Positions 18,435-59,100 of a DNA stretch of 64,000 nucleotides are shown piece after piece; the first letter of the stretch is position 1; each line of letters begins with the position of its first letter. Location of the stretch: assembly GCA_964459835.1 (NCBI GenBank), contig CAYWPA010000002.1, forward strand, positions 48,711-112,710, given 5' to 3'. The DNA is from an uncultured Methanosarcinales archaeon (GTDB taxonomy: Archaea; Nanobdellota; Nanobdellia; Woesearchaeales; UBA12501). The notes beneath the pieces are model-generated. The model was not told where the DNA came from and did no database searches. It saw nothing but the letters and a program-made list of their open reading frames with translations. The translations under genes were made by a program, and so were the position numbers.

Positions 18435-18475
18435 TTTATTTTCTATATAGAAAATAATTAAAATCATAAAAACCG
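18435..18475. promoter_or_regulatory. conserved palindromic upstream motif, copy 1 (TTTATTTTCTATATAGAAAATAATTAAAA)
   Basis: Near-identical to 40018-40052, 44463-44498 and 59067-59100. A TATA-like TTTATATA lies ~20 bp downstream of the motif. Confidence 0.55.
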
Positions 18476-18533
18476 AAACATTTATATATAGGAATACTCA
18501 CTAGAGAGTAATAACATTTAAAGGGTGGTCATA

Positions 18534-18641
18534 ATGATAAGCATAAGAAGGAATGATGAAAGGGAGATGGACGAAGAGTTCAGGATTCTGCAGGAAGAAA
18601 TTCTTGAAACGATTCAGCTTTACATAAATAATAAAAGGTGA
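18534..18641 (+). CDS. small acidic ORF (35 aa)
   Basis: ATG preceded by AAGGGTGG. First of three tightly spaced small ORFs, all below the ORF-track cutoff. Confidence 0.3.
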   Translation: MISIRRNDEREMDEEFRILQEEILETIQLYINNKR

Positions 18642-18646
18642 GAAGA

Positions 18647-18745
18647 ATGGATGAATTTGATATGCTGGAAGAATTGTACAACAAAAGGGATATTTTCGAA
18701 ACATTAATGAATAGCGAGGAATTCAGAGAATTGGAGGATATGTAA
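18647..18745 (+). CDS. small acidic ORF (32 aa)
   Basis: ATG preceded by AAAGGTGAG, 5 nt after the previous stop. Confidence 0.3.
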   Translation: MDEFDMLEELYNKRDIFETLMNSEEFRELEDM

Positions 18746-18746
18746 G

Positions 18747-19112
18747 ATGGAGGAGACGGAAGGCATGGGAAAGTTACAATTTATATCTGTTGATGATATC
18801 GCAGGAAGAGATCAATTGATACTTCCTAAAGAGACTTTGGATGATGCTTTTGCCGGTATGATCCCAGAGGAACAAAAACCAACTTTAGATATTGGATCAA
18901 TCAAGTCATATGTGTTTAGCCTTTTGAATGGAAATACAATATGGCCTATTGAAGTTTATAGAAAAAATGGGAAATTTGTTGTAAGAGGAGATTATGAAAT
19001 AGTTAATGCATGTGCTTATATCGGTTGCTCACTATGGGTTGAAGTGATGCCTCCAGACGATTTAAGAATTCCACCACGAGACAGGCAAGGAAGCAAACAT
19101 CAATCACAATAA
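18747..19112 (+). CDS. hypothetical protein (121 aa)
   Basis: Starts 1 nt after the previous stop (GGAGGA upstream). No known motif. Confidence 0.4.
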   Translation: MEETEGMGKLQFISVDDIAGRDQLILPKETLDDAFAGMIPEEQKPTLDIGSIKSYVFSLLNGNTIWPIEVYRKNGKFVVRGDYEIVNACAYIGCSLWVEVMPPDDLRIPPRDRQGSKHQSQ

Positions 19113-19150
19113 CCACAACCCTTAAAAACACCTTAATTTTCCTTCTTAAA

Positions 19151-19435
19151 ATGAGGTTCAACTTAGAGCTAGATAAAGCTGTTGAGGAAATAAGGAAAGC
19201 AGATGCAAAGAAAGTCTGCATTCAGCTGCCTGACGGCTTGAAGCCTGAGGCAAAGAAAATAGCTGATGCTATAGAAGAAAAAACAAAGGCAAAAGTCATA
19301 ATATGGGCCGGGTCATGCTTTGGGGCATGTGATTTGCCATTAGAGGTTGAAAGGATGGGCGTTGATCTGCTTATCCAATGGGGCCATTCTAAGTGGAAAT
19401 ACGGGAATATCAAAGAAATCAATTACCTAGATTAA
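19151..19435 (+). pseudogene. dph2: diphthamide synthase Dph2, N-terminal fragment only (94 of ~340 aa)
   Basis: KKVCIQLPDGLKPEAKKIADAIEEK...GSCFGACDLPLEVERMGVDLLIQWGHS parallels Dph2 residues ~5-85 (VLIQSPEGL...GACD...GHS). ORF stops right after; no continuation in any frame. Confidence 0.7.
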
Positions 19436-19853
19436 AAGAAAATCTTATTAACATTAATTTATTCCACCATGACAATTTCTTAGGTGGCTGTGAAACGACT
19501 TGAGGAGATTCTCTCATAGGCTCAACTTGTGAAACTTCTTCTGCCTTTTCTTTAGGCATGCATGCTCCATCAAAGCAGCCGTTCTCACAGGCAATCCTGT
19601 TGGAAGCCTTTACTTTTCCAAAGCATCCATATTCTAATAGCTCATCGCTGCTTGCGCATTTATCAGCAAAGCTAAAGCTTTCTCCGTGCTCATCTGTTCC
19701 TGCAATAAACCCTTTTTTTTCATAAGTCATTCCGGAATCAGTATCTGTGCATGTCCTGTCAGCAAGCATATCTTTGCATACGCCATTTGAGCATTCTCCC
19801 TTGCATCTTTTTACATCCTTCCATGTTCCTGCAACACATTTTCTCAGATACAT
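19419..19853 (-). CDS. Cys-rich secreted-protein segment (downstream half of an ORF interrupted by one in-frame TGA)
   Basis: Same frame as 19917..20288. The 21 codons between them (ECKRPVDCTEEDFSCYPSYGA) are also Cys-rich. Confidence 0.4.
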   Translation of the reverse strand: MYLRKCVAGTWKDVKRCKGECSNGVCKDMLADRTCTDTDSGMTYEKKGFIAGTDEHGESFSFADKCASSDELLEYGCFGKVKASNRIACENGCFDGACMPKEKAEEVSQVEPMRESPQVVSQPPKKLSWWNKLMLIRFSFNLGN

Positions 19854-19916
19854 TGCTCCATATGAAGGGTAGCAGCTGAAATCCTCTTCTGTGCAGTCAA
19901 CAGGCCTTTTGCATTC

Positions 19917-20288
19917 TCATTCAAAACATCCATTTGCACATCTCTGTGTTGTAACCCATAATCCACCCTGGCAGTATTCCTGCACCACTCCATTGCACCT
20001 GAAGTCTCCTGCGCTGCACGGCTTTTCACAGCTTGCTGTCCCATATTTTGCTTCTGTAGGGCACTTCACTCCATCAACATAAAGATCGTTTCTCTTGCTG
20101 TCGTATCTTACATCTTGTTCAGGAATGGACTCAACATAGTTAAGCTGTCCTGTAGAATACATTGCTGATCCTCTTGTGCCTGTTGATGTATAGATATAGT
20201 TTCCTGTGATCATTGGCGGAATCAGAAAAATAAGAAGCATTGCAATTACAAAGCATAAAACAGCAATAATGGCATTTTTAGCTTCCAT
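19917..20288 (-). CDS. Cys-rich secreted/TM-anchored protein (upstream half; ends at in-frame TGA)
   Basis: N-terminal hydrophobic anchor followed by a C-x-C rich domain. Stop TGA at 19917-19919. Confidence 0.45.
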   Translation of the reverse strand: MEAKNAIIAVLCFVIAMLLIFLIPPMITGNYIYTSTGTRGSAMYSTGQLNYVESIPEQDVRYDSKRNDLYVDGVKCPTEAKYGTASCEKPCSAGDFRCNGVVQEYCQGGLWVTTQRCANGCFE

Positions 20289-20311
20289 AGCTTTTAATTG
20301 GCTTTATTAAT

Positions 20312-20490
20312 TTAAAAAGCTTTCGCAGTATTGTATTTAATGCATACAAAGTACTTTACTTTTATACCACCTAAACAAACAGGCTTAATATCAACCTCAG
20401 CACCATAGTCCAGGCCTTTTAAAAACTCATTGATAAACTCCTCTGCTTTCTTTAGACTATAAAACTCAGCAAGCCTTACTTTTTGAACCA
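20312..20490 (-). CDS. small hypothetical ORF (59 aa)
   Basis: Unannotated ORF MVQKVRLAEFYSLKKAEEFINEFLKGLDYGAEVDIKPVCLGG... lying in an otherwise empty 300-bp gap. Confidence 0.25.
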
Positions 20491-20524
20491 TGGCTAACTT
20501 TTGTTTTTGTAGTTTAAAAATTTT

Positions 20525-20562
20525 GTTATAGATTTATTATAGATTTGAAGTAATATTAATAT
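20525..20562 (+). promoter_or_regulatory. tandem 11-bp repeat (TTATAGATTTA/TTATAGATTTG) plus perfect 12-bp palindrome AATATTAATATT upstream of the wHTH gene
   Basis: Directly seen 25-60 bp upstream of the ATG at 20586. Candidate operator/TATA region. Confidence 0.4.
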
Positions 20563-20585
20563 TAGGACTATGTTAAGGTAAAAGC

Positions 20586-20858
20586 ATGGCTAAGAAAAAG
20601 AAAAGTGCTGATGTTTCTTTGCTAAGCTGGGTCAAGAGAGGGAAGCAAAGAAGGGAGATTCTTGTTCATATAGGAGACAAAGAAACACCAACTGAAATAG
20701 CAGAAAAATCAGGCTACTCTCTAAACCACACAAGCAAGGTATTAAATGATTTCAGAAGGCAGGGCCTTGTTGTCTGCCTTAATCCAAAACAAAAAACAGG
20801 AAGGCTTTACAAGCTGACGCTAAAAGCAAATGTAATAAAAGATACTTTAAAGAAATAA
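20586..20858 (+). CDS. winged-helix transcriptional regulator (90 aa)
   Basis: HTH-like segment TPTEIAEKSGYSLNHTSKVLNDFRRQGLV followed by a wing. Confidence 0.55.
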   Translation: MAKKKKSADVSLLSWVKRGKQRREILVHIGDKETPTEIAEKSGYSLNHTSKVLNDFRRQGLVVCLNPKQKTGRLYKLTLKANVIKDTLKK

Positions 20859-20865
20859 AAACCAG

Positions 20866-21537
20866 CTAGAGTATTCCTTTTTCCATCATGCTGAAATATT
20901 TTTTATCTGTAACGATAATGTGATCAAGAACTTCTATGCCCATTATTTTTCCAGCTTCAACAATCTGTTTTGTTGCTTCAATGTCCTCATCGCTAGGCTC
21001 AGGGTCATTCGAAGGATGATTATGTACAAGAATAACAGCAGCTGCATTTTCATTTATGGCAATATTAAATACTTCTCTTGGGTGTATGATATTTGAATCA
21101 AGGCTGCCGACAAAAATAATTTCTTTTTTAAGCATTCTTTTTCTTGCATCGATATATATGCCCAAAAGATGCTCCTTATTCAGGCAGGAAAGCTCATCCT
21201 GAACAATATCAACAACATCTTTTGCAGAACTTATTATCGGCAAATTTCTGCTGCTGCAATTTTTAAGCCTTCGTGCAAGCTCAAAACATGCTATGATCTG
21301 GCAGGCCTTTGCCTGCCCAATGCCTGTTTCTTTTTTTATAGCATTTACCCTTATTCTTGAAAGTTTTTTAAGGTCATATTTTTTAAGAATTTTTGAAGAA
21401 ATCTCAATAATGTTTTCTGTTTTGCTGCCAGTTCTTAGAATAATCGCAAGCAGCTCAGCATTACTTAATGCAGCTGCCCCATTTTTTTCAAGCCTTTCCC
21501 TGGGCCTATCATCTTTTGGCAAAGAAAGAATTTTCAT
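20866..21537 (-). CDS. radC: RadC-family JAMM protein
   Basis: HNHPSNDPEPSDEDIEATK (the HNHPSG...PS.D motif) and an N-terminal helix-hairpin-helix region. Confidence 0.8.
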   Translation of the reverse strand: MKILSLPKDDRPRERLEKNGAAALSNAELLAIILRTGSKTENIIEISSKILKKYDLKKLSRIRVNAIKKETGIGQAKACQIIACFELARRLKNCSSRNLPIISSAKDVVDIVQDELSCLNKEHLLGIYIDARKRMLKKEIIFVGSLDSNIIHPREVFNIAINENAAAVILVHNHPSNDPEPSDEDIEATKQIVEAGKIMGIEVLDHIIVTDKKYFSMMEKGIL

Positions 21538-21654
21538 TAAAGAATTTATCCTGCCCCTTTATTTAAATTTTGTTTTTGTGCAATAAAATTATGTAGTTTT
21601 TGATTAAACAATTTTGTTATTATTTTTTTATTTATATTATGAATAACTGTATTT

Positions 21655-22842
21655 CTAATTGAATTTCTTATAATTTTCCTCTAAAGCAGCAATAGCAGGA
21701 AGCTCTTCTCCTGAAAACATTGCCAAAGAAGCTCCTCCTCCTGTAGAAACATGTGTCATCTTTTCTTCCAGCCCTAAATCCCTTATAATATCAGCAGTAT
21801 CTCCTCCTCCTATAATCTTTACTGCATTTAGCTTTGCAATATATTCTGCTATCTGGCTGCTTCCTTCTGCAAACTTCTTTATTTCATACATTCCCAAAGG
21901 CCCGTTCCAGATTATTGTTTTTGCCTTGTCAAGCTCCTGCTGGAAGCTGAAAATAGTTCCAGGCCCGATATCCAATCCCATATCATCAGGCTTGATGTTT
22001 ATCATCGCTGTCATTTTTTCCTGTGCTTTTTCACTTGCTTCCTTGGCAACAATAATATCTTCTGGAAATACTATTTTATCCCCGCCTTTTTCAATTATTT
22101 CCTTTGCTTTTTTTATGTTTCCTTTGTCAACGATGCTTTTCCCAACCTCAAACCCCTGTGCCTTAAAAAAAGTAAAAATCATTCCTCCTCCTAGGAGTAT
22201 TTTGTCAACTTTGTCAAGCAGATGCTCAATCATGGGGATTTTTGTTTCCAGCTTTGCTCCCCCTACTATTGCAACAAAAGGATGTTTAGGGGATTCCATA
22301 GCTTCTTTTATTGTTGTAATCTCCTTGTCAAGCAAATATCCTGCGCAGCCTTCTATGAATCTTGTTATTGCATGAACTGATGCATGCTTCCTGTGGCATA
22401 CGCTGAATGCCTCATTGACATAAATATCTCCGTAGCTTGCAAGCTCCCTTGCAAAATATTCATCATTGGCTTCCTCTCTCTTATCAAACCTTAAGTTTTC
22501 AAGCATAACTATGTCTCCAAACTGCATTTTTTCAAGCTCTTCCCTTACATCAATGCCTATGATGCCTTCAATCTTCTTTACTTTCTTCCCAAGCAGCTCA
22601 GAAAGCCTTTCTGCAACATTGTCAAGCTTAATGTTCTCATCAATCCCCCCTTTGGGCCTGCCTAGATGGCTCATCAGAATTACTTTTGTTTTTTTTGAAA
22701 GAATATGTTTTATAGTAGGCAGCGTCTTCCTTATCCTGTAATCATCCTCTACTTTATTGTTGTCGTCGAGAGGAACATTAAAATCAACCCTTATTAGAAC
22801 TCGTTTTCCATCTAAATCCATATCCTCAAGCTTCCTGTACAT
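21655..22842 (-). CDS. pgk: phosphoglycerate kinase
   Basis: RVDFNVP, AHRAH-like CHRKHASV and C-terminal GGGAS/GGGDT motifs. Confidence 0.85.
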   Translation of the reverse strand: MYRKLEDMDLDGKRVLIRVDFNVPLDDNNKVEDDYRIRKTLPTIKHILSKKTKVILMSHLGRPKGGIDENIKLDNVAERLSELLGKKVKKIEGIIGIDVREELEKMQFGDIVMLENLRFDKREEANDEYFARELASYGDIYVNEAFSVCHRKHASVHAITRFIEGCAGYLLDKEITTIKEAMESPKHPFVAIVGGAKLETKIPMIEHLLDKVDKILLGGGMIFTFFKAQGFEVGKSIVDKGNIKKAKEIIEKGGDKIVFPEDIIVAKEASEKAQEKMTAMINIKPDDMGLDIGPGTIFSFQQELDKAKTIIWNGPLGMYEIKKFAEGSSQIAEYIAKLNAVKIIGGGDTADIIRDLGLEEKMTHVSTGGGASLAMFSGEELPAIAALEENYKKFN

Positions 22843-22865
22843 AAAGAAAAATGATAAACGGTTAT

Positions 22866-23870
22866 TTATATACTTTTTCCCATTATCTTTACAATATCAA
22901 TCATTCTGCACGAATACCCCCACTCATTGTCATACCATGCAAGAACTTTTATCAGATTGCCGTCAATCACATCTGTCATTGAGGCATCAAATATTGCAGA
23001 ATTCCTGTTTCCAATTATGTCTGTTGAAACAAGCTCTTCTTCTGAATACTCAAGAACACCTTTAAGATGATACTCTGCCACATTTTTGAACAAAGCATTT
23101 ATCTCTTCTATTGTGGTCTTCTTTTTAACCCTGCATACAAAATCGCTTATGCTTCCGTCAGGTGTAGGGACTCTAATTGCAATTCCATTAAGCTTTCCAT
23201 TTAATCCAGGGATTGTTTCTGTCACAGCCTTTGCAGCTCCTGTTGTTGTAGGAACTATGTTTGCAGCAGCGCTCCTTCCCCTTCTAAAATCCTTGTGCGG
23301 AGCATCTACTAAATTCTGGTCTGCTGTATAGCTGTGGACTGTTGTTAAAAATCCGTGCTCAATGCCAAAATTATCATTCAGAACTTTTACCACAGGCGCC
23401 AGGCAGTTTGTGGTGCATGATGCATTTGAAATTATCAAATCATTAGGCTTAATATCTTCCTCATTAACTCCTTTGACAATTGTTTTTACCTTGTCAGGGC
23501 CTTTGCAAGGCGCAGAAACCAAAACTTTTTTTGCTCCGGCCTTAATATGCTTTGAAGCCAGCTCTTTTGTAAGGAAAAATCCTGTGCTTTCAACAACAAT
23601 ATCTATCTTCAGTTTTTTCCATGGCAAATTTTCAGGGTCTCTTTCAGAGCAGACAATGATTTCTTTTCCGTCAACAATAAGCTTTCCTTTGTCTGCCTTG
23701 ACTTCTTTTTCATATCTTCCATGGACAGAGTCATGCTTTAATAAGTAAGCCAAAGAAGCAGTGTCTCCCAAGTCATTTACAGCGACAAACTCTATTTGAG
23801 GATCATCAACCCCAGCCTTGAAAACCATCCTTCCTATTCTTCCAAAGCCGTTTATAGCAACTCTAATCAT
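22866..23870 (-). CDS. gap: glyceraldehyde-3-phosphate dehydrogenase, class I (bacterial/eukaryotic type)
   Basis: INGFGRIGR NAD motif and catalytic ASCTTNCLAP. Class I signature rather than archaeal class II. Confidence 0.85.
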   Translation of the reverse strand: MIRVAINGFGRIGRMVFKAGVDDPQIEFVAVNDLGDTASLAYLLKHDSVHGRYEKEVKADKGKLIVDGKEIIVCSERDPENLPWKKLKIDIVVESTGFFLTKELASKHIKAGAKKVLVSAPCKGPDKVKTIVKGVNEEDIKPNDLIISNASCTTNCLAPVVKVLNDNFGIEHGFLTTVHSYTADQNLVDAPHKDFRRGRSAAANIVPTTTGAAKAVTETIPGLNGKLNGIAIRVPTPDGSISDFVCRVKKKTTIEEINALFKNVAEYHLKGVLEYSEEELVSTDIIGNRNSAIFDASMTDVIDGNLIKVLAWYDNEWGYSCRMIDIVKIMGKSI

Positions 23871-23935
23871 TTAGCACCTCTTTCTATAATAACCAGAAAT
23901 TATAATATATAAATATTTCCTTAGCTACATTTATT

Positions 23936-24214
23936 TTAGCTCTTTATTTCCTTCTGAAAAGACTTCAGAAACTTATCATTCTCTTTCTTAAGCCTCTTTA
24001 ATGCATCTGCCAATGCTTCCCTTGGGGATTTTTTTGATGTTTCAACAATGATTTTAGGTACTCCGATGAACGGATGGTTTACATTATATGTAGCTGTTTT
24101 TACACTCTCGTCATTGTAAAGCTCATTGGTAAGGGCATTGCAAAGTGTGGTGTCTTCCCCATGAAGCTCAAATACAAGCTTTGTTTTGCTTTCTTCCAGA
24201 ACCTTGACTTCCAT
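23936..24214 (-). CDS. rpoL: DNA-directed RNA polymerase subunit L (Rpo11)
   Basis: 92 aa. ELHGEDTTLCNAL matches the RpoL GEDHTLGN motif. Confidence 0.7.
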   Translation of the reverse strand: MEVKVLEESKTKLVFELHGEDTTLCNALTNELYNDESVKTATYNVNHPFIGVPKIIVETSKKSPREALADALKRLKKENDKFLKSFQKEIKS

Positions 24215-24343
24215 TTTAGCTGTTGTAGAAATGGCTGCTTTATAAAGCTTTGGGTTTGTTTAAGATATGAATTATTATACTATCTTAAAATAATAACATT
24301 TATATTAAAGGCTATTTTCACAAATTTAATCTGATGTGGTGAT

Positions 24344-25789: not shown

Positions 25790-25798
25790 AAAAATAAA

Positions 25799-30741: not shown

Positions 30742-31353
30742 TTAAGCTTCTACTATATTTTCTTGCTTTTCCTGCTGGTTCTGCTGCTGGGTTTCTGCAA
30801 TCTTCTCGTTTTTAATGGTTCTCTGCAACTCCCTGATCAGCTTCTGTGTTTCATCCATGTTGTTTTTAATGGCTAGAATAGCCTTCTCAAAGGCCATTTC
30901 CAATGTGTTTCCACTCAGCTTATACCCGATAACAACCTTTCCTTCGCTGATATAGCTTGTTTTTACGATCAGGCTGATATCTGTCCATCGCTTTAAGTAG
31001 TCATACATTGTCTGCCTTGTAATCCCAGCATAATATCCCATCTGCTCAACTGTCATTACAGCCAATTCCGGCTTTTTCTGTCTGTAAGCCTGCTTGCTTC
31101 TCTCGTACATCTCTACCATAACCCGGTACATCTTATCGGTAGAGCCTTTTTTTCTTGGCATTAAGCCGATTCTTGACAGAACAACATTTGCCAATTCGTC
31201 AGTACTTGGATTTAAGCTAGGCTGCACATCCGTCAATATGATTTTTGCGGTTTTGAATTTAATCACCTCCACAAACACATATATGGTATATACTTCTTCT
31301 GGGATTTTATTTAAAAGCTTTTGGTATTCTGCCGACAAGGAAAAAAGTTTCAA
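30742..31353 (-). CDS. winged-helix DNA-binding protein (203 aa)
   Basis: Central HTH VEQMGYYAGITRQTMYDYLKRW plus a wing; Q/E-rich tail. Confidence 0.45.
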   Translation of the reverse strand: MKLFSLSAEYQKLLNKIPEEVYTIYVFVEVIKFKTAKIILTDVQPSLNPSTDELANVVLSRIGLMPRKKGSTDKMYRVMVEMYERSKQAYRQKKPELAVMTVEQMGYYAGITRQTMYDYLKRWTDISLIVKTSYISEGKVVIGYKLSGNTLEMAFEKAILAIKNNMDETQKLIRELQRTIKNEKIAETQQQNQQEKQENIVEA

Positions 31354-39315: not shown

Positions 39316-39678
39316 ATGAAAGTAATGATAACAATATTCGGACTAATGACTGTGCTTGCAGGAGTTCTTCCGTTTGCAGGAAATTTTAACATTCTGCCAG
39401 CTTACATTCCAACAACAGGAATGTGGTACTATGGGATAATTATTGGAATCGGAGTTTTGGGATTTATCTATGGTGTTACAAATCCAGGAATGCTGTTATA
39501 CGGAACTGACAGGTTTATTCCAGTTTTCCTCGGTATTTTGACTCTTTTTGGAGGAGTTCTTCCATTTGTGCAGAATTTTGGATTTTTGAAAATGGTTCCA
39601 GCAACAGGACTTATTTATTCTGGAATAATTTCTTTGATAGGGATTATTGGAATTATTTACGGAGCAACACAGATTTAA
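39316..39678 (+). CDS. membrane protein with internal duplication (120 aa)
   Basis: Two ~55-aa halves, each containing GVLPF..NF. Confidence 0.45.
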   Translation: MKVMITIFGLMTVLAGVLPFAGNFNILPAYIPTTGMWYYGIIIGIGVLGFIYGVTNPGMLLYGTDRFIPVFLGILTLFGGVLPFVQNFGFLKMVPATGLIYSGIISLIGIIGIIYGATQI

Positions 39679-39932
39679 ATAATTTCTACTTTGCTTCCTA
39701 CTGCCTGTCCTGGCATTCCTTTCTCAAACAGAACTCTTACTGCTCCTGAATTTCCATGAGCAGCTCTTATCTCTCCTTTAATTTCTTTGCTTGCAGGGCT
39801 TTTCCATACTACTTTTTTTCCAACAAGGCCTTTTGCCTTATCTTTGTTGTCTACTCCCTTGACTACAACAACCATGTAAGTATCTCTTTGCGTATGCACT
39901 CCCTGCCTGTAATTTTTGATTACTGCTTCCAT
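39675..39932 (-). CDS. rpl35ae: 50S ribosomal protein L35Ae
   Basis: LVGKKVVWKSP...HGNSGAVRVLFEKGMPGQAVGSKV matches the L35Ae signature. Confidence 0.8.
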   Translation of the reverse strand: MEAVIKNYRQGVHTQRDTYMVVVVKGVDNKDKAKGLVGKKVVWKSPASKEIKGEIRAAHGNSGAVRVLFEKGMPGQAVGSKVEII

Positions 39933-40017
39933 AACAGTTTGGATTTTGAGATGGTTTATAAAGCTTATTGCCTTGGTTAAGTCTAACGACTGTTGCTAAA
40001 AGTCTAACGACGGCCAC

Positions 40018-40052
40018 TAATTATTTTCCATATAGAAAAAAATTAAAACGGC
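40018..40052. promoter_or_regulatory. conserved palindromic upstream motif, copy 2 (TTATTTTCCATATAGAAAAAAATTAAAA)
   Basis: Upstream of rpl35ae (minus strand). TATA-like TTTATAAA at 39946-39956. Two 12-bp direct repeats AAGTCTAACGAC lie at 39979-40011. Confidence 0.5.
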
Positions 40053-44418: not shown

Positions 44419-44462
44419 TCTCTATTTCTCATAATTGATTGGCTGTTTGTTATTTTTTATAT

Positions 44463-44498
44463 TTATCTTCCATATAGAAAATAATTAAATAAAAAATC
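44463..44498. promoter_or_regulatory. conserved palindromic upstream motif, copy 3 (TTTATCTTCCATATAGAAAATAATTAAATAAAA)
   Basis: Lies between the lon stop and the gyrB start. TATA-like TTTATATA ~60 bp upstream of the gyrB ATG. Confidence 0.5.
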
Positions 44499-44566
44499 TA
44501 TAAAACCTTTAAATTATGGTATTATGGCCTCTATAAAGCCATTCCAGCAGCAAAAGATTTATATAG

Positions 44567-47803
<3,237 letters not shown>

Positions 47804-47825
47804 TCATCATGTATAAAATTACTCT

Positions 47826-50853: not shown

Positions 50854-50920
50854 TTTAATGATACAAGAATAATAAAATAAATGTAAAATAATATAAACAT
50901 ATGGCAATAATCTCATTCTT

Positions 50921-52015: not shown

Positions 52016-54646
52016 TTACCTTGCCTTTTCTAATTCCATCTTCTCTCTTATAAACTTGAATATTTCGCCGAAGATAAAGACGCTTGATGCAACTGCTACT
52101 GTAATCAGCCAGTCAAATCTTGTCATTGGGATTGTCTTGAAGTAGACATTCAATGGAGTGTGGATTACTATAATCTGCAGCAAAATTGAAGTTCCTATTG
52201 CCCCTATCAAATGAAGGTTTGAGAAAACTCCAAGCTTGAACAGGCTTTTTCTTTCGCTCCTGCAGTTCAATACGTTGAACATCTGGAACATCATCAAAGT
52301 TGTAAAGGCAACTGTCTGCGCATACCTTAGGTTTTCCTCAGGTCCGTACATCTTGAAAACAAACAATGTTCCAAGCATCATAATAATGCCTGTGATAAAA
52401 ATATAAAACTCCCCGAATGTGTCAATTATTTTGGCCTTAGGCTTTCTTGGGGGCCTTTCCATTATGCCTTTCTCTTCAGGCTCTACTCCCAAAGCAAGTG
52501 CAGGCAGGCCGTCTGTAACCAAATTAATCCACAGAATCTGGATAGGTATAAGCGGAAGCATTGTTCCTCCATTTCTTCCTGTAAAGATTAGTATTGCCAT
52601 AAAAATAGTGAGGATTTCTCCTATATTGCTTGAGATAAGATACTCAACAAACTTCCTTATATTGTCAAATATGCTTCTTCCCTCTTCAACAGCATTAACA
52701 ATGGATGTAAAGTTATCATCAGTTAATATCATATCAGATGCTTCTTTTGCAACATCTGTTCCTGTAATGCCCATTGAAATCCCTATGTCTGCCTTTTTCA
52801 AAGCAGGAGCATCATTTACGCCGTCTCCTGTCATTGCAACAATATGGCCTTTTTTCTTCAAAGCGGCTATTATCTTCAGCTTATCTTCTGGATTTACTCT
52901 CGCATAGATTGCAATGTCATTTACTTCCTTGTCCAAATCTATCCCATGCAGCTCTTCTCCTGTTATTGCCTTTCCTTCAATTCCAAGCGCTCTTGCAACA
53001 GCCATCGCAGTTGTTTTATGGTCTCCTGTAATCATAACTACTTTAATTCCTGCAGTTTCACATTTTTGTATTGCCAGCTTTACTTCTTCTCTTGGCGGGT
53101 CAATCATGCCCTGCAGTCCGACAAAAATCAAATCTTTTTCTGTAAAATTCCCTTTAACATCTTTGTAGGCAAAACCCATGACCCTTAATGCATTGTCTGC
53201 AAACTCCTCATTTATTTTCAGAATCTCCTTTTTCTTTTGCGGTGTTAATTCCTTAACTTTTCCATTTACAATAATTTTTGAGCATAATTTAAGTATAACA
53301 TCAGGAGCGCCTTTCATATATGCAGCTTTATTCCCATTAATTTTATGTATAGTAGCCATCCTTTTTCTTTCAGAGCTAAAAGGTATCTCTTCCAATCTTC
53401 TGTGCTTGATATCAAGATTTTCCTTGTACAGCCCATTCTTTGCTGCGCTTACAATCAACGCGCCTTCAGTAGGGTCTCCGACTACCTCATATCCTTTGTC
53501 TTCTTTCAGCGTGGCATTATTGTTCAAAGCCCCTATCTGAAGCAATAATCCAAGGTCTTTTGGTTTGCTTGAGAAATCCCCTTTAGACTCATAGCCAGAG
53601 CCAGAAACATCGATAATTTCATCGTCAACATAAACTTTGGTAACAGTCATTTGGTTATGCGTAAGGGTACCTGTCTTATCGCTGCATATTACTGTTGTGC
53701 AGCCAAGGGTTTCTACAGAAGGCAGCTTTCTGACAAGGGCATGCCTTTTGATCATCCTTTGCACTCCTAGTGCCATGCATATTGTTACCACAATGGGCAG
53801 CCCTTCTGGGATTGCAGCTACTGCCAAGCTTACAGCAGCAAGGAACATGTCAAGCAGCGGATTTCCTTTTAATACTCCAACGCCAAAAACAACTATACAG
53901 ATAATTATAGTTAAAGCACCAAGCCGTCTTGCCAATGCCTTTAATTTTTTCTGTAGCGGAGTCAATTCTTCTTTTGTTATTTGAATAAGGTGCGCAATGC
54001 TTCCTATCTGCGTCTGCATTCCTGTTCCTACTACTAATGCTTTTCCTACTCCGTCTGTGATTACAGTGCCTGAGAAAATCATGTTATGCCTGTCAGCAAC
54101 AGGTGTTTTTTCTGCCAATATTGCAATTTCTTTTTTTACAGGCGTTGACTCTCCTGTTAATGCAGCCTCCTGTGTATAAAGAGACGAAATCTCTATAAGC
54201 CTTGCATCAGCAGGAATCTTTTCCCCTGCTTCCAGGATCAAGATATCGCCGGTAACAACTTCTTTTGAATCAATCTGGACTTTTTTTCCGTTCCTCAGCA
54301 CAACTGTCTTAAGGGAGGCCATTTTTTTTAGGGCATCTATTGCTTTTTCAGCCTTGTATTCCTGTACAAAGCCAAGGACAGCATTAAGCACAAGTATAAT
54401 GCCGATTACAATAGCATCAAGGTCTTCTCCTACAAACAATGAAATAGCCACTGCTGCAAGAAGTATCCATACAATTGGGCTGGCAAACTGCGAGATGAAT
54501 ATTTTCAGAGGGCTTATCTTTTCCTTTTCTTCCAGCTGGTTTAGCCCGTATTTTTCCAGCCTTTTCTTTGCCTCAAACTCTGACAGTCCGTTAGGGCCTG
54601 TAGCAAATTCTTTATACAGCTCCTCTGATTTTTTAGTATGATACAT
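52016..54646 (-). CDS. P-type cation-transporting ATPase (Ca2+/Na+-K+ subtype-like)
   Basis: DKTGTLT phosphorylation site, TGDHKTTA, GDGVNDAPALKKADIG hinge, and ~10 TM helices. Confidence 0.9.
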   Translation of the reverse strand: MYHTKKSEELYKEFATGPNGLSEFEAKKRLEKYGLNQLEEKEKISPLKIFISQFASPIVWILLAAVAISLFVGEDLDAIVIGIILVLNAVLGFVQEYKAEKAIDALKKMASLKTVVLRNGKKVQIDSKEVVTGDILILEAGEKIPADARLIEISSLYTQEAALTGESTPVKKEIAILAEKTPVADRHNMIFSGTVITDGVGKALVVGTGMQTQIGSIAHLIQITKEELTPLQKKLKALARRLGALTIIICIVVFGVGVLKGNPLLDMFLAAVSLAVAAIPEGLPIVVTICMALGVQRMIKRHALVRKLPSVETLGCTTVICSDKTGTLTHNQMTVTKVYVDDEIIDVSGSGYESKGDFSSKPKDLGLLLQIGALNNNATLKEDKGYEVVGDPTEGALIVSAAKNGLYKENLDIKHRRLEEIPFSSERKRMATIHKINGNKAAYMKGAPDVILKLCSKIIVNGKVKELTPQKKKEILKINEEFADNALRVMGFAYKDVKGNFTEKDLIFVGLQGMIDPPREEVKLAIQKCETAGIKVVMITGDHKTTAMAVARALGIEGKAITGEELHGIDLDKEVNDIAIYARVNPEDKLKIIAALKKKGHIVAMTGDGVNDAPALKKADIGISMGITGTDVAKEASDMILTDDNFTSIVNAVEEGRSIFDNIRKFVEYLISSNIGEILTIFMAILIFTGRNGGTMLPLIPIQILWINLVTDGLPALALGVEPEEKGIMERPPRKPKAKIIDTFGEFYIFITGIIMMLGTLFVFKMYGPEENLRYAQTVAFTTLMMFQMFNVLNCRSERKSLFKLGVFSNLHLIGAIGTSILLQIIVIHTPLNVYFKTIPMTRFDWLITVAVASSVFIFGEIFKFIREKMELEKAR

Positions 54647-54714
54647 TGTTTAGCTTCTTTTTACAAGTATCCTGAACGTCAGCCTTTCAATAAAGTCAAC
54701 ATGTATGCTTCTTT

Positions 54715-55035
54715 TCATTCCAATTGCCTCCTGGTTCCTATCTTCAGGTCTTTCAGGTTAGAAAGGAAGTACTCAAGGCAGTCTGTTGCACAGAAGGTTG
54801 CCTTCTTTTTCAGGTCTTCAGGCCCAAACATCAATGTAAAGTTGTTCATGCTGTATCTGTCAATCCTGCTGTTGCATGTTGTGCAGTATATGTTGTGCTT
54901 CTTAAGCTCATCCTTTATTTTAGTCTCTACTACCTTCTTTATCTCTAAAGCACCGTTGTGCTCTATATCCCTTACCATGTTTGTAAGCTCATTGAAGTCA
55001 ATAAGCTCCACTACCTCATCGAATCTCCTTTTCAC
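54715..55035 (-). CDS. zinc-ribbon hypothetical protein (106 aa)
   Basis: CTTC...C...C spacing; unknown family. Confidence 0.35.
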   Translation of the reverse strand: MKRRFDEVVELIDFNELTNMVRDIEHNGALEIKKVVETKIKDELKKHNIYCTTCNSRIDRYSMNNFTLMFGPEDLKKKATFCATDCLEYFLSNLKDLKIGTRRQLE

Positions 55036-55039
55036 TTTT

Positions 55040-56317
55040 TCACCTCTCTATTTTTACTTTGTCCATTAATTTTGGAACATAAACATTGTAGTCAAGCATC
55101 CTTGCCCATTCAGCCAAGCAGTCTTCTGCTTTGGGGTCGCCATGCAGCAATACAAGATGCTCGGGATTTGCTTTTTTGATCAGGCTTTTTGTTTCCTTTA
55201 ATCCGGAATGCGCAGAAAAGTCAAAATTTTCCACAAAACAGAGGGCTTTCTTTTTGTAGCCGTCAATAAAAACTGATTTTTCATCCATCAGCAGCCTTCC
55301 GTTTGTGTGCTCTCCCTGGTAGCCTGTCAGCAATACTGAATTTTTTTGGTCAAAGTACATATGCTTCAGATAGTCCATTACAGGCCCTCCTGTCAGCATT
55401 CCTGATGTAGTTATGAAAACTCCCTGCTTCTTTACAATGTTCTCTCTTTGCTTTCCTCCCTTCACCAGCCTTACCTTGCTGTATGCCTTTCTCAGCATTT
55501 TTGCGTCCTTTATTGACTGCGGCTCTTTAAGAATAATATCTGTAGCTTCCTTTGCCATTCCGTCAAGATAAACAGGAGCATCTAATTTTAACTGAGAGAG
55601 AAGCAGCATAATTTCCTGTGCTCTTCCAACGGCAAAGCATGGGATTAATACACTTCCGCCATTGTTTACTGTCTCTGCAACCTTATCAAGGAACTCCTTC
55701 TCAACCTTTTTTCTTGGAGGATGATCTCTGTCTCCGTAAGTTGATTCTGTTATCAATACATCTACCTCACCAAAGCTTGTGTCTGCTTCTTTCATCAATT
55801 GAGTTTCCTGCAGGTTAATATCTCCTGTATAAAGCAGAGATTTATTGTCTGCATTTACAAGAATTGTTGAGCTTCCAGGAATATGGCCTGCAGGGTAGAA
55901 CGTGAAGTTTACATCCAGAACTTTTCCTGACTCTTTCTGCCTTATTCTTTTTACGCAATTCAGTATCTTCTGTATGTCTTCCTCAAAATATCCCAATTCC
56001 TCGTGCTTAAATCTTCCAATCTTGAACGCGTCTTCCAGCAGGACTTTTGTCAATTTTTTTGTCATTGAGGTTGCATAAATCGGGCAGTACAATCCCTGAT
56101 GATCAAACAAAGGCAGGGCTCCTGTATGGTCCAAATGCGCATGGCTTATCAGCACTGCATCAATCTCTGAAAGATTCTGCATTCCGACAGGAAACTCGCT
56201 TAGGCTTTCTGTCAATTTTAAGCCTGCATCAAGAAGAATTCTTGTTGATTTTTTTGTTTCTAATTCAATGCAGCTCCTTCCTATTTCCATTGCAGCGCCA
56301 TGGAAAGTCAATTTCAT
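55040..56317 (-). CDS. beta-CASP/metallo-beta-lactamase ribonuclease (aCPSF2-like, no KH domains)
   Basis: ISHAHLDHTGALP (HxHxDH) and beta-CASP motifs. Confidence 0.8.
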   Translation of the reverse strand: MKLTFHGAAMEIGRSCIELETKKSTRILLDAGLKLTESLSEFPVGMQNLSEIDAVLISHAHLDHTGALPLFDHQGLYCPIYATSMTKKLTKVLLEDAFKIGRFKHEELGYFEEDIQKILNCVKRIRQKESGKVLDVNFTFYPAGHIPGSSTILVNADNKSLLYTGDINLQETQLMKEADTSFGEVDVLITESTYGDRDHPPRKKVEKEFLDKVAETVNNGGSVLIPCFAVGRAQEIMLLLSQLKLDAPVYLDGMAKEATDIILKEPQSIKDAKMLRKAYSKVRLVKGGKQRENIVKKQGVFITTSGMLTGGPVMDYLKHMYFDQKNSVLLTGYQGEHTNGRLLMDEKSVFIDGYKKKALCFVENFDFSAHSGLKETKSLIKKANPEHLVLLHGDPKAEDCLAEWARMLDYNVYVPKLMDKVKIER

Positions 56318-56496
56318 TTCTTTCCACCTCTTTTTCCCCTTTCCTCAAACTCTACGTACCATCTTTGCGTTGCCTTGTCATACTTGAACACCACATCGTG
56401 CTTTTTGGAGGGATCCAGCGCAAAGAGGAGCGGCATAGGTATGGTTGTCTCAAAACTGCTTCCTCTCTTGTAAAGCCGCCTTCTTATCTCGGTCAT
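56314..56496 (-). CDS. AbrB/MazE-like swapped-hairpin small DNA-binding protein (60 aa)
   Basis: RLYKRGSSFETTIPMPL resembles the AbrB/SpoVT fold signature. Overlaps the beta-CASP start by ATGA. Confidence 0.4.
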   Translation of the reverse strand: MTEIRRRLYKRGSSFETTIPMPLLFALDPSKKHDVVFKYDKATQRWYVEFEERGKRGGKK

Positions 56497-56654
56497 TTTC
56501 TGGATACTTATATTTATCTTTATTTTTATACTATTCTATTTATAAATATTTCTATTCTTTTATATACTTAAGAAAATACTTATATATTAAGGATTATTTG
56601 GGAGTAGTATATTAAAGAAAGCTTTATTAACTAGGCTTTATTCCCCACATTAGC

Positions 56655-57338
56655 ATGACTTTAGAAGCAACTCTTGGAGTAATGAATGCGGTTGAAGGCA
56701 ATAAGAACTTACAACTAGGATTTTTCAACGTGCTTTCTGAATTAACTGGCCTTCAAGTAGGTGTAGGAAATATGTCTTATAAATCAAACGGTGTTCAAGC
56801 GGGGTTGTTAAATCAGTCTTATAAATCAAACGGTGTTCAAGTAGGATTTGCAAACATGACTTCTGATGCGACTTCTGATTCTAAAAAAACTACAAAAGAA
56901 CAAATTAATGGATATTCTAATGGAATGCAAGCCGGGTTATTCAATTTTGCTGGTGTATCAAAAGGGCTCCAAATTGGCGTAGCTAATATAGCTAAATGCA
57001 CTTATGGTGTTCAGCTAGGTTTATTTAATGAATCTTATACTTATCATCCTGAAGAAATAGAAGAAACAAAAGGTGTTCAGATTGGTCCTTTTAATTCTAT
57101 TAAAAAAGGAAAGGGATTTCAGTTTGGAGTTATCGATTTTGCTAAAAGACTTAAAGGTGTTCAGCTTGGTTTAGTTGATGTTGTTAAAAGAGAATTTGAT
57201 GGATTGCAAGTTGGCGGAATCTGTTACGCAGCTGAAGGTACATATTTGCAATTAGGTGTATTGACTTTAAGAACAGAAGGACGATGGTATTCAAGGATAA
57301 CTCCTTTAGTTGGTTATCATTCAAGGCCTAAAAAATAA
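56655..57338 (+). CDS. repeat protein with ~10 copies of a G-[VLM]-Q-x-G-[LFV]-x-N motif
   Basis: Repeats GLQVGVGN, GVQAGLLN, GVQVGFAN, GMQAGLFN, GLQIGVAN, GVQLGLFN, GVQIGPFN, GFQFGVID, GVQLGLVD, GLQVGGIC. AT-rich codon usage; no SP called. Confidence 0.5.
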   Translation: MTLEATLGVMNAVEGNKNLQLGFFNVLSELTGLQVGVGNMSYKSNGVQAGLLNQSYKSNGVQVGFANMTSDATSDSKKTTKEQINGYSNGMQAGLFNFAGVSKGLQIGVANIAKCTYGVQLGLFNESYTYHPEEIEETKGVQIGPFNSIKKGKGFQFGVIDFAKRLKGVQLGLVDVVKREFDGLQVGGICYAAEGTYLQLGVLTLRTEGRWYSRITPLVGYHSRPKK

Positions 57339-57380
57339 TTTTCAGAAACTATATAAACAAATCTTTTTTTCTTTTACTTT

Positions 57381-58193
57381 ATGAAACTAGCCATTATCGT
57401 TTCTACTAAAGACCCTGCAGGAATGAACATAAAGGAACGGCTTTTAGAGACAGGAAAATTCAAGGAAACAGCAGAGTGGAAAGGCCACAAAATCTACGAG
57501 TACAACAAAGACTGCCATCTTTACACAACAGATACTGATTCAATAAGGAATGAAGACATTGACAAGGAAATAAAAGCAGACTTTTTTCTTTTTGCAACAA
57601 AGCACAGCTCTTCTGCAGGCGTAAGATCATTAAGCGTGCATTCGATCGGAAACTGGGGCAAGGCAGAATATGGAGGAAAAGATAAATCATTGGTTTTTTC
57701 AGATGGAAATTTGTTAAGATATTCTTTATTTCTACTTGAAGAATTAAATAATTTAGAAATAGAAACAATCCAAGAAGTCACTCATCACGGCCCTTATTTA
57801 GAAAAGCCAACAATGTTCATTGAAATAGGAAGTGAAGAAAAAGGGTGGAAAGACAAGAAAGCAGCAGAAATTCTGGCAAAAGCAATAATCAATGTTGTTG
57901 AAACTTTGCAGCAAAATAAATTGCCGAAATTTACAATTGCTTTTGGCATTGGAGGCCTGCATCACTCCCCTATCTTTACTTCTATAATGCATAAAACTGA
58001 TTTAGCCTTCTCCCATATCTGCCCAAAATACAATCTTGAAAACTTGAGTATAGAACTAATAAAGGAGGCAATGGAAAAGGGAAAGGCAGAGTTAGTTGTT
58101 CTGGACTGGAAAGGCTTAGGGAAGGAAAAGCAGCGCATAGTGGAAATGTTAGATAAAAACAATATTACTTACAAAAGAAGCAAAGACCTTTAG
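57381..58193 (+). CDS. dtdA: archaeal D-aminoacyl-tRNA deacylase (DtdA)
   Basis: End-to-end similarity to the Pyrococcus DtdA pattern (KDPAGMNI..., HSIGNWGKAEYGGKD, THHGP, IAFGIGGLHHSP, VLDWKG). Confidence 0.7.
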   Translation: MKLAIIVSTKDPAGMNIKERLLETGKFKETAEWKGHKIYEYNKDCHLYTTDTDSIRNEDIDKEIKADFFLFATKHSSSAGVRSLSVHSIGNWGKAEYGGKDKSLVFSDGNLLRYSLFLLEELNNLEIETIQEVTHHGPYLEKPTMFIEIGSEEKGWKDKKAAEILAKAIINVVETLQQNKLPKFTIAFGIGGLHHSPIFTSIMHKTDLAFSHICPKYNLENLSIELIKEAMEKGKAELVVLDWKGLGKEKQRIVEMLDKNNITYKRSKDL

Positions 58194-58238
58194 ATTTTTG
58201 CGAGGCTTAATATTTAAAATTAATGTATTTTAAGAAAT

Positions 58239-58997
58239 TCAGGCTTTTTTCTCAGGGCTTGCAGCAGGCTTTCCTTCAACAGGTTTTCCCTCAACAGGCT
58301 TTGCTTCTACAGGCATTAATTCCTTGATGATCTGCATTGGCACTCCGGCTTCTAACATCTTTGCTTTGATAGCTGAAGCAGTCTTTCCTTCCATCTCCTT
58401 CAATATTGCTTTTCCTTTTGCCTCGTACTCAACTCTCTTTGCCTTTATGTCTTCCTCAAGCCTCTTCCTTTCTTCTTCCAATGCTTTAAGCTCTTCTGTT
58501 GAAAGTTCTGTCTTTCCTTTTTCTATCTTTTCCTTAAAAGCTCCCTTGTTGATATCAGCGATAGTTTCTCTTGCAGGCTTTCCCTCAACTAATATTCCCA
58601 TTGAGTCGCATGTCCCTATAATTTCCTTTACTTTTGAAAATTTGTCTTTTCCAAGCAAAGAATCAGCTTTCATTTTTGAAACTTTTATTATCTGCTCAAT
58701 TTTCAAATCAGCAACCTTTTCAAGCTTAGGGTTTGCAGCGCCTTTCTGTACATTTGCCTCTTTTTTTATCAAAGCTGATGTAGGCGGAGTTCCAACTGAT
58801 ATTGTGAAGCTTTTTGTTTCCTTGTCTATTGTTACTTTAACAGGCACCTGCATTCCCTTGAATTCCTGGGTTTTTTTGTTTATTTCTGTAACTACCTGCC
58901 CTATGTTTACTCCTAACGGCCCTAAAGCAGGCCCTAACGGAGGTGCTGCAGTAGCTTTTCCCCCTTCAATCAATGCATCTACGGTTTGAGTTGCCAT
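58239..58997 (-). CDS. rpl11: 50S ribosomal protein L11 with ~90-aa K/E/PVEGK-repeat C-terminal extension
   Basis: GGKATAAPPLGPALGPLGVNI and a conserved C-domain, then KAKRVEYEAKGK...PVEGKPVEGKPAASPEKKA. Confidence 0.8.
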   Translation of the reverse strand: MATQTVDALIEGGKATAAPPLGPALGPLGVNIGQVVTEINKKTQEFKGMQVPVKVTIDKETKSFTISVGTPPTSALIKKEANVQKGAANPKLEKVADLKIEQIIKVSKMKADSLLGKDKFSKVKEIIGTCDSMGILVEGKPARETIADINKGAFKEKIEKGKTELSTEELKALEEERKRLEEDIKAKRVEYEAKGKAILKEMEGKTASAIKAKMLEAGVPMQIIKELMPVEAKPVEGKPVEGKPAASPEKKA

Positions 58998-59066
58998 GTT
59001 TTGCAGGATTTAGAAGTAGTATTTAAAGGTTATTGCCATAGGGCATTGAAAATATTAAATTAATCT

Positions 59067-59100
59067 TAATTATTTTCTATATGGAAAATAAATAGTAAAA
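59067..59100. promoter_or_regulatory. conserved palindromic upstream motif, copy 4 (TAATTATTTTCTATATGGAAAATAAATAG)
   Basis: Lies 70-100 bp upstream of the rpl11 ATG. A separate TATA (RC of AGTAGTATTTAAAGG at 59013-59030) sits at about -25. Confidence 0.5.

Follow-up and report, generated by a model that had tools for sequence, protein, structure and literature searches.

A palindromic element of about 28 bp occurs four times in a 64,000-nucleotide stretch of DNA from an uncultured archaeon (hereafter, the window; contig CAYWPA010000002.1 of assembly GCA_964459835.1, positions 48,711 to 112,710), in the spacers upstream of rpl11, rpl35ae, gyrB and a unit of small open reading frames (ORFs). 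The palindrome is conserved across Woesearchaeota-type DPANN archaea, where it recurs at the promoter end of genes, inside replication origins adjoining orc1, flanked there by inverted origin recognition boxes (ORBs), and on the core promoter of a gene encoding a small basic protein with a PadR-like winged-helix fold. That the element is conserved and functional can be considered established; on balance, the palindromes are probably, albeit far from certainly, binding sites of this PadR-like candidate factor, which would thereby regulate its own gene.

In the window, four sites match the 22-mer TTATTTTCYATATRGAAAATAA with no or one mismatch, none match with two to four, and background matches set in at five to six mismatches. 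The 16-bp core TTTTCYATATRGAAAA is located at 18439-18454, 40024-40039 and 59073-59088 and, with one mismatch (TCTTCC), at 44466-44481, with no further site in the window at up to two mismatches. A search with the 26-mer TTTATTTTCYATATRGAAAATAATTA, allowing up to three mismatches, recovers the same four places only and yields nothing in 100 dinucleotide-preserving shuffles (the G+C content of the window is 37.8%). The palindrome is real and far beyond what chance would produce. Conservation is limited to about 28 bp, with a mean pairwise identity of 87% in the core vs 25-30% in the 45-bp flanks; because the flanks are unrelated, the copies are not the ends or parts of a longer repeat, and derivation from such a repeat or from a miniature inverted-repeat transposable element was rejected on the same ground. 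When the copies are read in the direction of the flanking genes, the right arm GAAAATAATTA is nearly invariant and the left arm reads TTTAT(T/C)TTC, an orientation bias that is not significant with four sites.

All four copies reside in spacers between genes on the same strand (Table 1), and each is followed by a separate TATA box before the start codon. The center of the motif is 38, 73, 88 and 57 bp upstream of the TATA center for copies 1 to 4, respectively, copy 3 having in addition a second TATA-like box (44507-44514) 37 bp downstream of its center. A preliminary description of this stretch, made from the sequence alone, had reported four copies of a conserved palindrome of about 28 bp, each between the 3' end of one gene and the start of the next, and distinct from the TATA box. 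All of these observations hold, and the motif is not the general promoter consensus of the lineage either, there being four sites for approximately 77 genes; the distance to the ATG, given as 60-150 bp, was close, being about 83-160 bp when measured from the motif center. Two further repeats occupy the same spacers, namely, a perfect 12-bp direct repeat AAGTCTAACGAC at 39979-39990 and 40000-40011 (21 bp apart), between copy 2 and the rpl35ae TATA box, which may be the site of another factor, and the near-palindrome TTGCCATAGGGCA at 59033-59045, between copy 4 and the rpl11 TATA box.

Table 1. Palindrome copies, promoters and downstream genes in the window, and loci of related archaea that carry the palindromes discussed in the text
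Feature	Position	Strand	Sequence	Remarks
Motif copy 1	18433..18462	.	TATTTATTTTCTATATAGAAAATAATTAAA	Spacer between HAD hydrolase and small ORFs; 47 nt past the HAD-hydrolase stop codon
TATA box, small-ORF unit	18481..18488	+	TTTATATA	Shine-Dalgarno-like GGTG before the start at 18525/18535
Unit downstream of copy 1	18525..19112	+		Small ORFs of 38 and 35 aa, plus one of 121 aa without a Pfam match
Motif copy 2	40016..40047	.	ACTAATTATTTTCCATATAGAAAAAAATTAAA	Spacer between TctA and rpl35ae; right flank shares nucleotides with the stop codon of TctA (40043-40045, minus strand)
TATA box, rpl35ae	39955..39962	-	TTTATAAA	Ends 22 nt before the ATG at 39932
Gene downstream of copy 2	39675..39932	-		Ribosomal protein L35Ae
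Motif copy 3	44460..44489	.	TATTTATCTTCCATATAGAAAATAATTAAA	Spacer between LonB and intein-bearing gyrB; one T>C in the left arm; 47 nt past the LonB stop codon
TATA box, gyrB	44558..44565	+	TTTATATA	gyrB ATG at 44633
Gene downstream of copy 3	44633..47803	+		DNA gyrase B with intein
Motif copy 4	59065..59096	.	CTTAATTATTTTCTATATGGAAAATAAATAGT	Spacer between spt5/nusG - hicB - hicA and rpl11; 40 nt past the HicA stop codon
TATA box, rpl11	59020..59027	-	TTTAAATA	Ends 22 nt before the ATG at 58997
Gene downstream of copy 4	58239..58997	-		Ribosomal protein L11, 252 aa, with C-terminal extension
Loci with the motif on the candidate factor's own promoter				L045, L093, L057, L081, L199-208, L217, L218-220, L221-222, L223; degenerate in L211
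Loci with a different palindrome upstream of a TrmB-like gene				L016, L103, L119, L123-125, L133, L146, L148, L158, L161, L164, L180, L192, L196, others

An exact scan with the 19-mer TTTTCYATATRGAAAATAA over one genome per prokaryotic species detected at least 118 loci. Among the matches listed, to which all counts of motif loci below refer, 78 loci from 57 assemblies belong to Woesearchaeota, Nanoarchaeota, 'Nanoarchaeia', Undinarchaeota or unclassified archaeal metagenome-assembled genomes (MAGs), and the rest are bacterial; the taxon labels are those of the record titles, and many loci are phylogenetically related. At least 14 assemblies carry two or more motif loci. Some of the MAGs are titled 'uncultured Methanosarcinales', a doubtful label given that, by their Orc1 proteins and the small size of their genomes, they go with the DPANN set; the proteins of the window are 60-75% identical to those of the archaeal motif loci. 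With simple longest-ORF gene calls, which are crude (93% coding in the window), 70 of the 73 scorable archaeal copies, including those of the window, are intergenic, whereas 26 of the 38 bacterial matches fall inside genes, as chance would give. The 70 intergenic copies comprise 40 between divergent, 26 between tandem and 4 between convergent genes, vs 26.7, 34.6 and 8.7, respectively, expected from spacer lengths (chi-square p = 0.0035). The intergenic location and the excess of divergent spacers indicate that the motif belongs to the promoter side of genes rather than to their ends. Further copies with one to four mismatches number 13 in 545 kb of archaeal loci vs 2 in 279 kb of bacterial loci, so that weaker sites exist as well. 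Our literature search found no described origin or promoter motif of Woesearchaeota or other DPANN.

The TTTAWATA boxes of the 78 loci and the window show a sharp peak, ending 20-23 nt before the start codon, such that mRNAs in this lineage appear to be mostly leaderless; the distances from the TATA boxes to the ATG of rpl35ae and rpl11 fit leaderless transcripts, too. The motif is separate from these boxes, and the ATG most often follows 38-56 nt after the end of the 16-mer. Between the motif center and the TATA center, there is a cluster at 27-33 bp (16 of 76) within a range of 13 to about 340 bp, which is compatible with a protein that is bound just upstream of the transcription factor B recognition element (BRE) at many promoters, in no strict register.

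BLAST clustering and Pfam scans, applied to genes directed away from the motif, identified Orc1/Cdc6 as the most frequent neighbor, in 15 of the 78 loci, all from different assemblies. In these loci, the region upstream of orc1 is arranged as in classical archaeal origins: inverted ORBs (TTCCA-N3-GAAA-N4-GGGG) surround an AT-rich stretch that contains the palindrome, and a mini-ORB adjoins the orc1 start. To remove the ascertainment bias, an independent set of 80 metagenomic orc1 loci was collected by protein similarity alone (59-77% identity). With up to four mismatches in 22 positions, the motif is present within 900 nt upstream of orc1 in 42 of the 66 loci that have at least 250 nt of upstream sequence, compared to 0.8 in shuffles with composition kept in 50-nt blocks; with up to two mismatches, the counts are 19 vs 0. 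The nearest ORBs are inverted around the motif in 29 of the 42 loci, and 17 of these 29 have it near the middle of the stretch between the ORBs, at 0.4-0.6 of its length (binomial p = 5.6e-6 against 0.2, related loci not being independent). Variant copies at origins often change symmetrically, for example, TAATTTACCATATTGTAAATTA. About one third of the orc1 loci have ORBs and no palindrome. In eight loci without it (L151, L163, L172, L185, L186, L193, L195, L197), the divergent neighbor of orc1 is not a TrmB-like gene but LonB, 61-65% identical to the LonB of the window, and there appear to be two types of origin neighborhood in the lineage. The window itself contains no orc1/cdc6 gene, TrmB-like homolog or ORB.

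Three kinds of DNA-binding proteins, and only three, recur beside the motif: Orc1/Cdc6, TrmB-like proteins and a PadR-like protein of about 104 residues (MPKGRPVKSEIRQNIVEILY..GYGYEIYK..TMRSIYYHLKKG..KGDYSWG). In 1.2 Mb of fetched DNA, all four copies of the gene for the latter are located directly at a motif that falls within the core promoter, these being loci ascertained through the motif. At L045 and L093, it directly adjoins the TATA box (GAAAA-cTATAAATAc, 22 nt to the ATG) and covers the BRE; in L057, it stands between the TATA box and the ATG; and in L081, it covers the ATG. With 1334 clusters at 90% identity, the family is a large one, and it is highly conserved, the best 120 being at least 76% identical; some sources name its members 'DNA-binding PadR family transcriptional regulator'. 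Among 10 lineages that were ascertained through the protein, the motif is clear in five (P0036, P0018, P0090, P0053, P0123) and degenerate in one (P0153, TTATTTGCAATATGGAAAC). It abuts the TATA box of the candidate gene in P0036 (ten contigs from a single marine population), P0018, P0090 and P0053, the latter with two tandem copies, and covers the ATG in P0123 (the loci are listed in Table 1). Where a small DNA-binding protein keeps a palindrome on its core promoter across lineages, in three different registers, this usually marks an autoregulated factor together with its own site. In the P0036 contigs (L199-L208), some 50 nt upstream of the gene, there is a C/T polymorphism exactly at the degenerate Y of the motif (TTTTCCATAT vs TTTTCTATAT), with the rest of the spacer nearly identical. 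The PadR-like gene is, furthermore, repeatedly divergent from or adjacent to a gene for an RMKL-like/N6_N4 methyltransferase (UPF0020; L081, L209, L213, L217, L223, L224), a conserved synteny.

The candidate did not match any Pfam family at threshold, the best being the PadR model PF03551, to which one member gives E = 0.033 and 14.6 bits, below the cut-off of 27, and the others give no match; no sequence relative was detected among PDB chains. An AlphaFold2 model built from 33 homologs (mean pLDDT 89) has the order helix, strand, helix, helix, long beta-hairpin wing and C-terminal helix, and the top Foldseek matches of this model in the PDB are PadR family structures (9qbd, 5dym, 6abt, 5x11; E of 4e-4 to 1e-3, TM of 0.43-0.62), including the Bacillus subtilis PadR-operator complex (5x11). 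Lower matches include RTP, a replication terminator protein, and AspA, which binds centromeres in archaea. Judging by the model, the predicted fold of the candidate is PadR-like winged-helix. The protein is basic (pI 9.3-9.7, about 12 kDa) and carries an invariant N-terminal GRP arm that, by its sequence, looks like an AT-hook; with such a fold, charge and arm, a dimer on the two TTATTTTC arms of the palindrome would be plausible.

We propose that the factor would bind as a dimer, with one winged helix per TTATTTTC arm across the ATAT center, and would do so in three settings. On its own core promoter, where the palindrome abuts the TATA box over the BRE, separates the TATA box from the ATG or covers the ATG, binding would imply negative autoregulation. 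At orc1-adjacent origins, it would occupy the midpoint between the inverted ORBs. In other intergenic spacers, it would mostly bind immediately upstream of the BRE/TATA in front of housekeeping genes that are divergent or tandem, and the four copies in the window belong to this third setting. There, the bound factor would most likely modulate rpl11, rpl35ae, gyrB and the small-ORF unit from upstream, a position that in archaea usually goes with activation or an architectural role. The regulatory effect would follow the cellular level of the factor, and the same protein would act at the origin.

The preliminary description had suggested a dimeric global regulator that controls translation- and replication-related genes through an upstream operator or activator site. 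A palindrome on the promoter side of genes indeed fits a dimeric, sequence-specific protein, both binding and dimerization being predictions. Genes of the suggested kinds adjoin the motif in many relatives (orc1, gyrA/gyrB, ribonucleotide reductase, aminoacyl-tRNA synthetases, ribosomal proteins, the TATA-binding protein), albeit as part of a heterogeneous and poorly conserved set. The most conserved places are the origin center and the candidate factor's own promoter, which shifts the picture away from a simple operon activator, toward an origin-plus-genome-wide factor similar to that of the ucm/UBP system of Sulfolobus (Dhanaraju et al. 2025, Nat Commun 16:5230; PMC12141716). The two winged helix-turn-helix proteins of the window that had been named as possible regulators are not supported: the ORF at 20586-20858 has weak helix-turn-helix matches only, that at 30742-31353 has none, and neither adjoins a copy of the motif. 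The best candidate is the PadR-like protein, which is not encoded in the window.

Several observations weigh against this assignment. The candidate gene was not found within the 64-kb window (hmmsearch, none at E <= 1), and four lineages with more distant homologs (P0141, P0137, P0158, P0136) lack the motif at the promoter of the gene. Where the motif is present there, the gene could simply be a target of some other factor. The genes next to the motif are heterogeneous and not conserved between genomes. The rpl11 genes of L038 and L215 and the gyrB gene of L022 have no upstream copy, so that the individual sites of the window are not conserved. At least two copies (L025, L036) reside in truly convergent spacers and, together with the variable distance to the TATA box (13-340 bp), these suit a protein with an architectural or nucleoid-associated role more than they do a classical activator. 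Finally, Orc1/Cdc6 is an equally frequent neighbor, and ANTTTC, a hexamer that can be read by Orc1-type proteins (PMC6061795), is present twice, in inverted orientation, in the motif.

Since Sulfolobus Orc1-2 recognizes ANTTTC, and ATTTTC stands twice in the palindrome in inverted orientation, Orc1/Cdc6 stays a rival binder. The palindrome could, in principle, be a second type of Orc1/Cdc6 site, bound by the initiator or by an Orc1 paralog doubling as a transcription factor in the manner of Sulfolobus Orc1-2, which would account for the prevalence of orc1/cdc6 both beside the listed motif copies and in the independent set; moreover, ATTTTC fits the hexamer that was footprinted and found to be needed for activation (PMC6061795), and the arms of the palindrome resemble the ORB dyad (TTTCC/GGAAA). 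However, canonical ORBs and mini-ORBs exist separately in the same regions and differ from the palindrome in arm sequence and spacer (3 vs 6 bp); Orc1 occupies ORBs as a polar monomer rather than a symmetric dimer, as is well established and restated in PMC12141716; about a third of the related orc1 loci have ORBs without the palindrome; and the window has neither orc1 nor ORB. Because, in addition, the motif on the PadR-like core promoter is left unexplained, we consider Orc1 binding unlikely. Somewhat less likely still is that the binder is another protein, a true counterpart of UBP, with the PadR-like gene, orc1 and the window genes as mere targets, and with the sites being nucleoid-organizing or origin elements that have little direct effect on transcription. 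The positional parallel to ucm/UBP is close (mid-unwinding element between inverted ORBs, with hundreds of intergenic sites; PMC12141716), there is a resemblance between the half-site TTTTCTATA and CTTTTGTATAAT, the reverse complement of ucm, and the variable promoter distance and the presence of some sites in convergent spacers are also in line with this possibility. Yet no UBP-like protein was seen next to the motif, where the recurrent DNA-binding proteins are limited to the three kinds listed above, and the three registers on the PadR-like core promoter are a classical mark of autoregulation. A TrmB-family regulator as the cognate protein was the leading candidate at first. A TrmB-like gene (PF01978 and PF11495) is the neighbor of orc1, always divergent from it, in 7 of the 15 listed orc1 motif loci and in 24 of 43 independent ones, and the motif is found in 21 of 24 orc1 loci with this neighbor vs 7 of 19 without it (Fisher p = 0.001), an association that is confounded by synteny and phylogeny. 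TrmB-family (TGM-like) sites are palindromes of the form TATCAC-N5-GTGATA or TACT-N7-8-GAGTA, and the TTTTC palindrome differs from these. The TrmB-like genes carry a different palindrome (GTTACT-N6-8-AATAAC or, in some, TATCAC..GAGTAA) about 12 nt upstream of their TATA box, in at least 20 of 38 promoters by eye (Table 1), which resembles known TrmB-family sites and is probably the operator of the TrmB-like regulator itself, whereas the TTTTC motif is 130-500 bp from the TrmB-like start codon. Because of this TGM-like palindrome at its own promoter, the TrmB-like protein was downgraded, and its binding to the motif now appears improbable.

Explanations that dispense with a dedicated regulator fare worse. 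The motif might be a core promoter element, either a lineage-specific BRE/TATA or a bidirectional promoter, given that its center CTATATAG is TATA-like, that GAAAAT read outward fits the BRE consensus RNWAAW and that the motif is enriched between divergent genes. We regard this as very improbable: the canonical TTTAWATA boxes are separate, with their ends 20-23 nt short of the ATG, the CCATATGG variants would make poor TATA boxes, the GAAAA arms, relative to the central TATA, stand on the wrong side for a BRE, and the window has far more genes than motif sites. A general BRE/TATA was rejected on account of the separate boxes at the canonical distance. The least credible reading is a nucleic-acid structure, such as a bidirectional terminator hairpin, a cruciform or an RNA element, or else the end of a small mobile element. 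The perfect inverted repeat and the location of every window copy just past the 3' end of a gene would suit it, but the predicted hairpins are weak (-6.7, -5.3, -1.0 and -4.6 kcal/mol), that of copy 3 being no better than shuffles, the sequence itself and not merely the pairing is kept across lineages, the flanks are unrelated, and most intergenic copies (40 of 70) separate divergent genes, where no transcript ends. A terminator was accordingly rejected, and so was a known RNA family or tRNA promoter, since the Rfam matches are to tRNAs only, with none to the motif, and no association with tRNA genes was observed in the 78 loci.

Apart from orc1 and the TrmB-like genes, the neighbors of the motif are a mixture: three class I aminoacyl-tRNA synthetases, phenylalanyl-tRNA synthetase, an AlaX-like protein, two S19e, L22, diphthamide synthase, two TATA-binding proteins, Rpb5, two tRNA-splicing endonucleases, two RNase Z-like proteins, two RIO1, gyrA, ribonucleotide reductase, uracil-DNA glycosylase, a DnaG-like Toprim protein, and transporters and hydrolases. 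Genes of replication and translation feature prominently, but DPANN genomes largely consist of such genes, and enrichment is not claimed. The diphthamide-synthase ORF of the window (19151-19435, 94 aa) spans profile positions 1-58 only, and its homolog in L060 (L060:5331-5999), with a motif 43 nt upstream and a HAD hydrolase as the divergent neighbor, spans positions 66-288. The gene may be split or truncated; the neighborhood of HAD hydrolase, motif and diphthamide synthase recurs.

The genes next to the window copies present some features of their own. The spt5/nusG and rpl11 genes are usually adjacent in archaea; here, a HicA/HicB toxin-antitoxin pair (59129-59611) is inserted between spt5/nusG (59615-60235) and rpl11. 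The L11 proteins of the window (58239-58997) and of related MAGs (L038:4881-5606; L215:175-882) consist of 235-252 residues, the L11 domains covering residues 1-137 only and being followed by a lineage-specific C-terminal extension of about 100 residues. In the gyrB gene of the window (44633-47803), Intein_splicing extends across residues 431-854, with an HNH-like stretch, and the L022 homolog has no intein. Elsewhere in the window, an Rfam tRNA match of 152 nt (7283-7434), directly after tRNA-Asn, is presumably an intron-containing tRNA that was missed by ARAGORN.

A broader scenario, which we put forward tentatively and with considerable doubt, is that Woesearchaeota-type DPANN evolved an independent counterpart of ucm/UBP. 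In this scenario, a PadR-like dimer at the origin center, between the Orc1-bound ORBs where MCM loads, would join in origin activation or gating, and the same autoregulated protein would mark dozens of housekeeping promoters, including those of rpl11, rpl35ae and gyrB. If so, replication initiation and growth-related gene expression would be tied to the concentration of one factor. The findings provide a concrete candidate in uncultivated DPANN, with a DNA element, its position between ORBs, dispersed copies and a named protein family, which would be the first regulon-like network proposed for Woesearchaeota, and the combination of inverted ORBs with a central palindrome could serve as a practical marker for Woesearchaeota origins in MAGs. 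Should the factor turn out to be an ordinary transcription factor and nothing more, there remains a well-supported cis-element of lineage-wide occurrence, along with its probable cognate regulator.

Among known regulators, those of the PadR family offer the nearest structural comparison. Like B. subtilis PadR with its operator (5X11), the candidate combines the modeled fold, a size of about 100-110 residues and a putative palindromic target, a copy of which lies on its own promoter; unlike PadR family members, it has an N-terminal GRP arm and no Pfam-threshold match, and its predicted targets are the origin and dispersed housekeeping promoters, not a detoxification or efflux operon. It can be described as a putative PadR-like regulator with a palindromic operator by its modeled fold and site architecture, not by Pfam membership. 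Orc1-2 of Sulfolobus footprints, and for activation needs, ANTTTC within the DNA damage-responsive element (DDRE; Sun et al. 2018, PMC6061795). A family of origin-associated proteins reads a promoter element that contains TTTC in this case, too. The motif described here has two inverted ATTTTC hexamers and adjoins ORBs at origins, but the DDRE is a single hexamer in a 20-bp asymmetric consensus of damage-induced genes, and the ORB combines TTCCA-N3-GGAAA with a G-string, in contrast to the TTTTC/GAAAA arms, 6-bp spacer and missing G-string of the motif. Unlike ORB elements, the motif also occurs in the window, away from orc1 and ORBs. In bacteria, Fis and IHF (Escherichia coli) and CtrA (Caulobacter) have sites in the origin and in many growth-related promoters. 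These are unrelated proteins of another domain of life, with another initiator system, next to a function that we infer here; the Fis/IHF parallel has also been drawn for UBP (PMC12141716).

The closest known system, by analogy, is ucm/UBP of Sulfolobales and Desulfurococcales. In Sulfolobus, the ucm motif of 11-12 bp, ATTATACAAAAG, is needed for origin firing and lies halfway from ORB2 to ORB3 in oriC1, and UBP is an essential basic protein of 111 residues (pI 9.3) with 329 further sites that are enriched in intergenic regions and show no clear correlation to transcription (PMC12141716). UBP and the N-terminal domain of MCM interact, and UBP influences growth-phase gene expression; ubp is reported to be confined to the two orders, and the authors ask about analogs in other lineages (PMC12141716). 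There are differences: the ucm consensus (ATTATACAAA-A/C) is asymmetric and is bound by a UBP monomer via beta-hairpins, whereas here a palindrome of 16-28 bp (TTATTTTCYATATRGAAAATAA) would be recognized by a PadR-like winged-helix candidate; the UBP entries 9EFD/E/F (SiRe_1573 family; beta-hairpin saddle) are not among the 50 best Foldseek matches of the candidate; and an occurrence on the promoter of the candidate's own gene, as observed here, is not reported for UBP. The similarity between the half-site TTTTCTATA and the reverse complement of ucm extends to 8 of 12 positions, in AT-rich sequence. The candidate, like UBP, is small and basic (about 104 aa and a pI of about 9.4), binding being proven for UBP and predicted here. 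As with ucm, many other chromosomal sites are enriched in intergenic regions, the four non-origin copies of the window among them, and, in the related loci rather than in the window, the motif takes the place midway between inverted ORBs in the AT-rich unwinding region of an orc1-adjacent origin. We therefore regard the palindrome and its putative factor as a system that would work like ucm/UBP, by likeness of layout and not, at present, as a member of that family.

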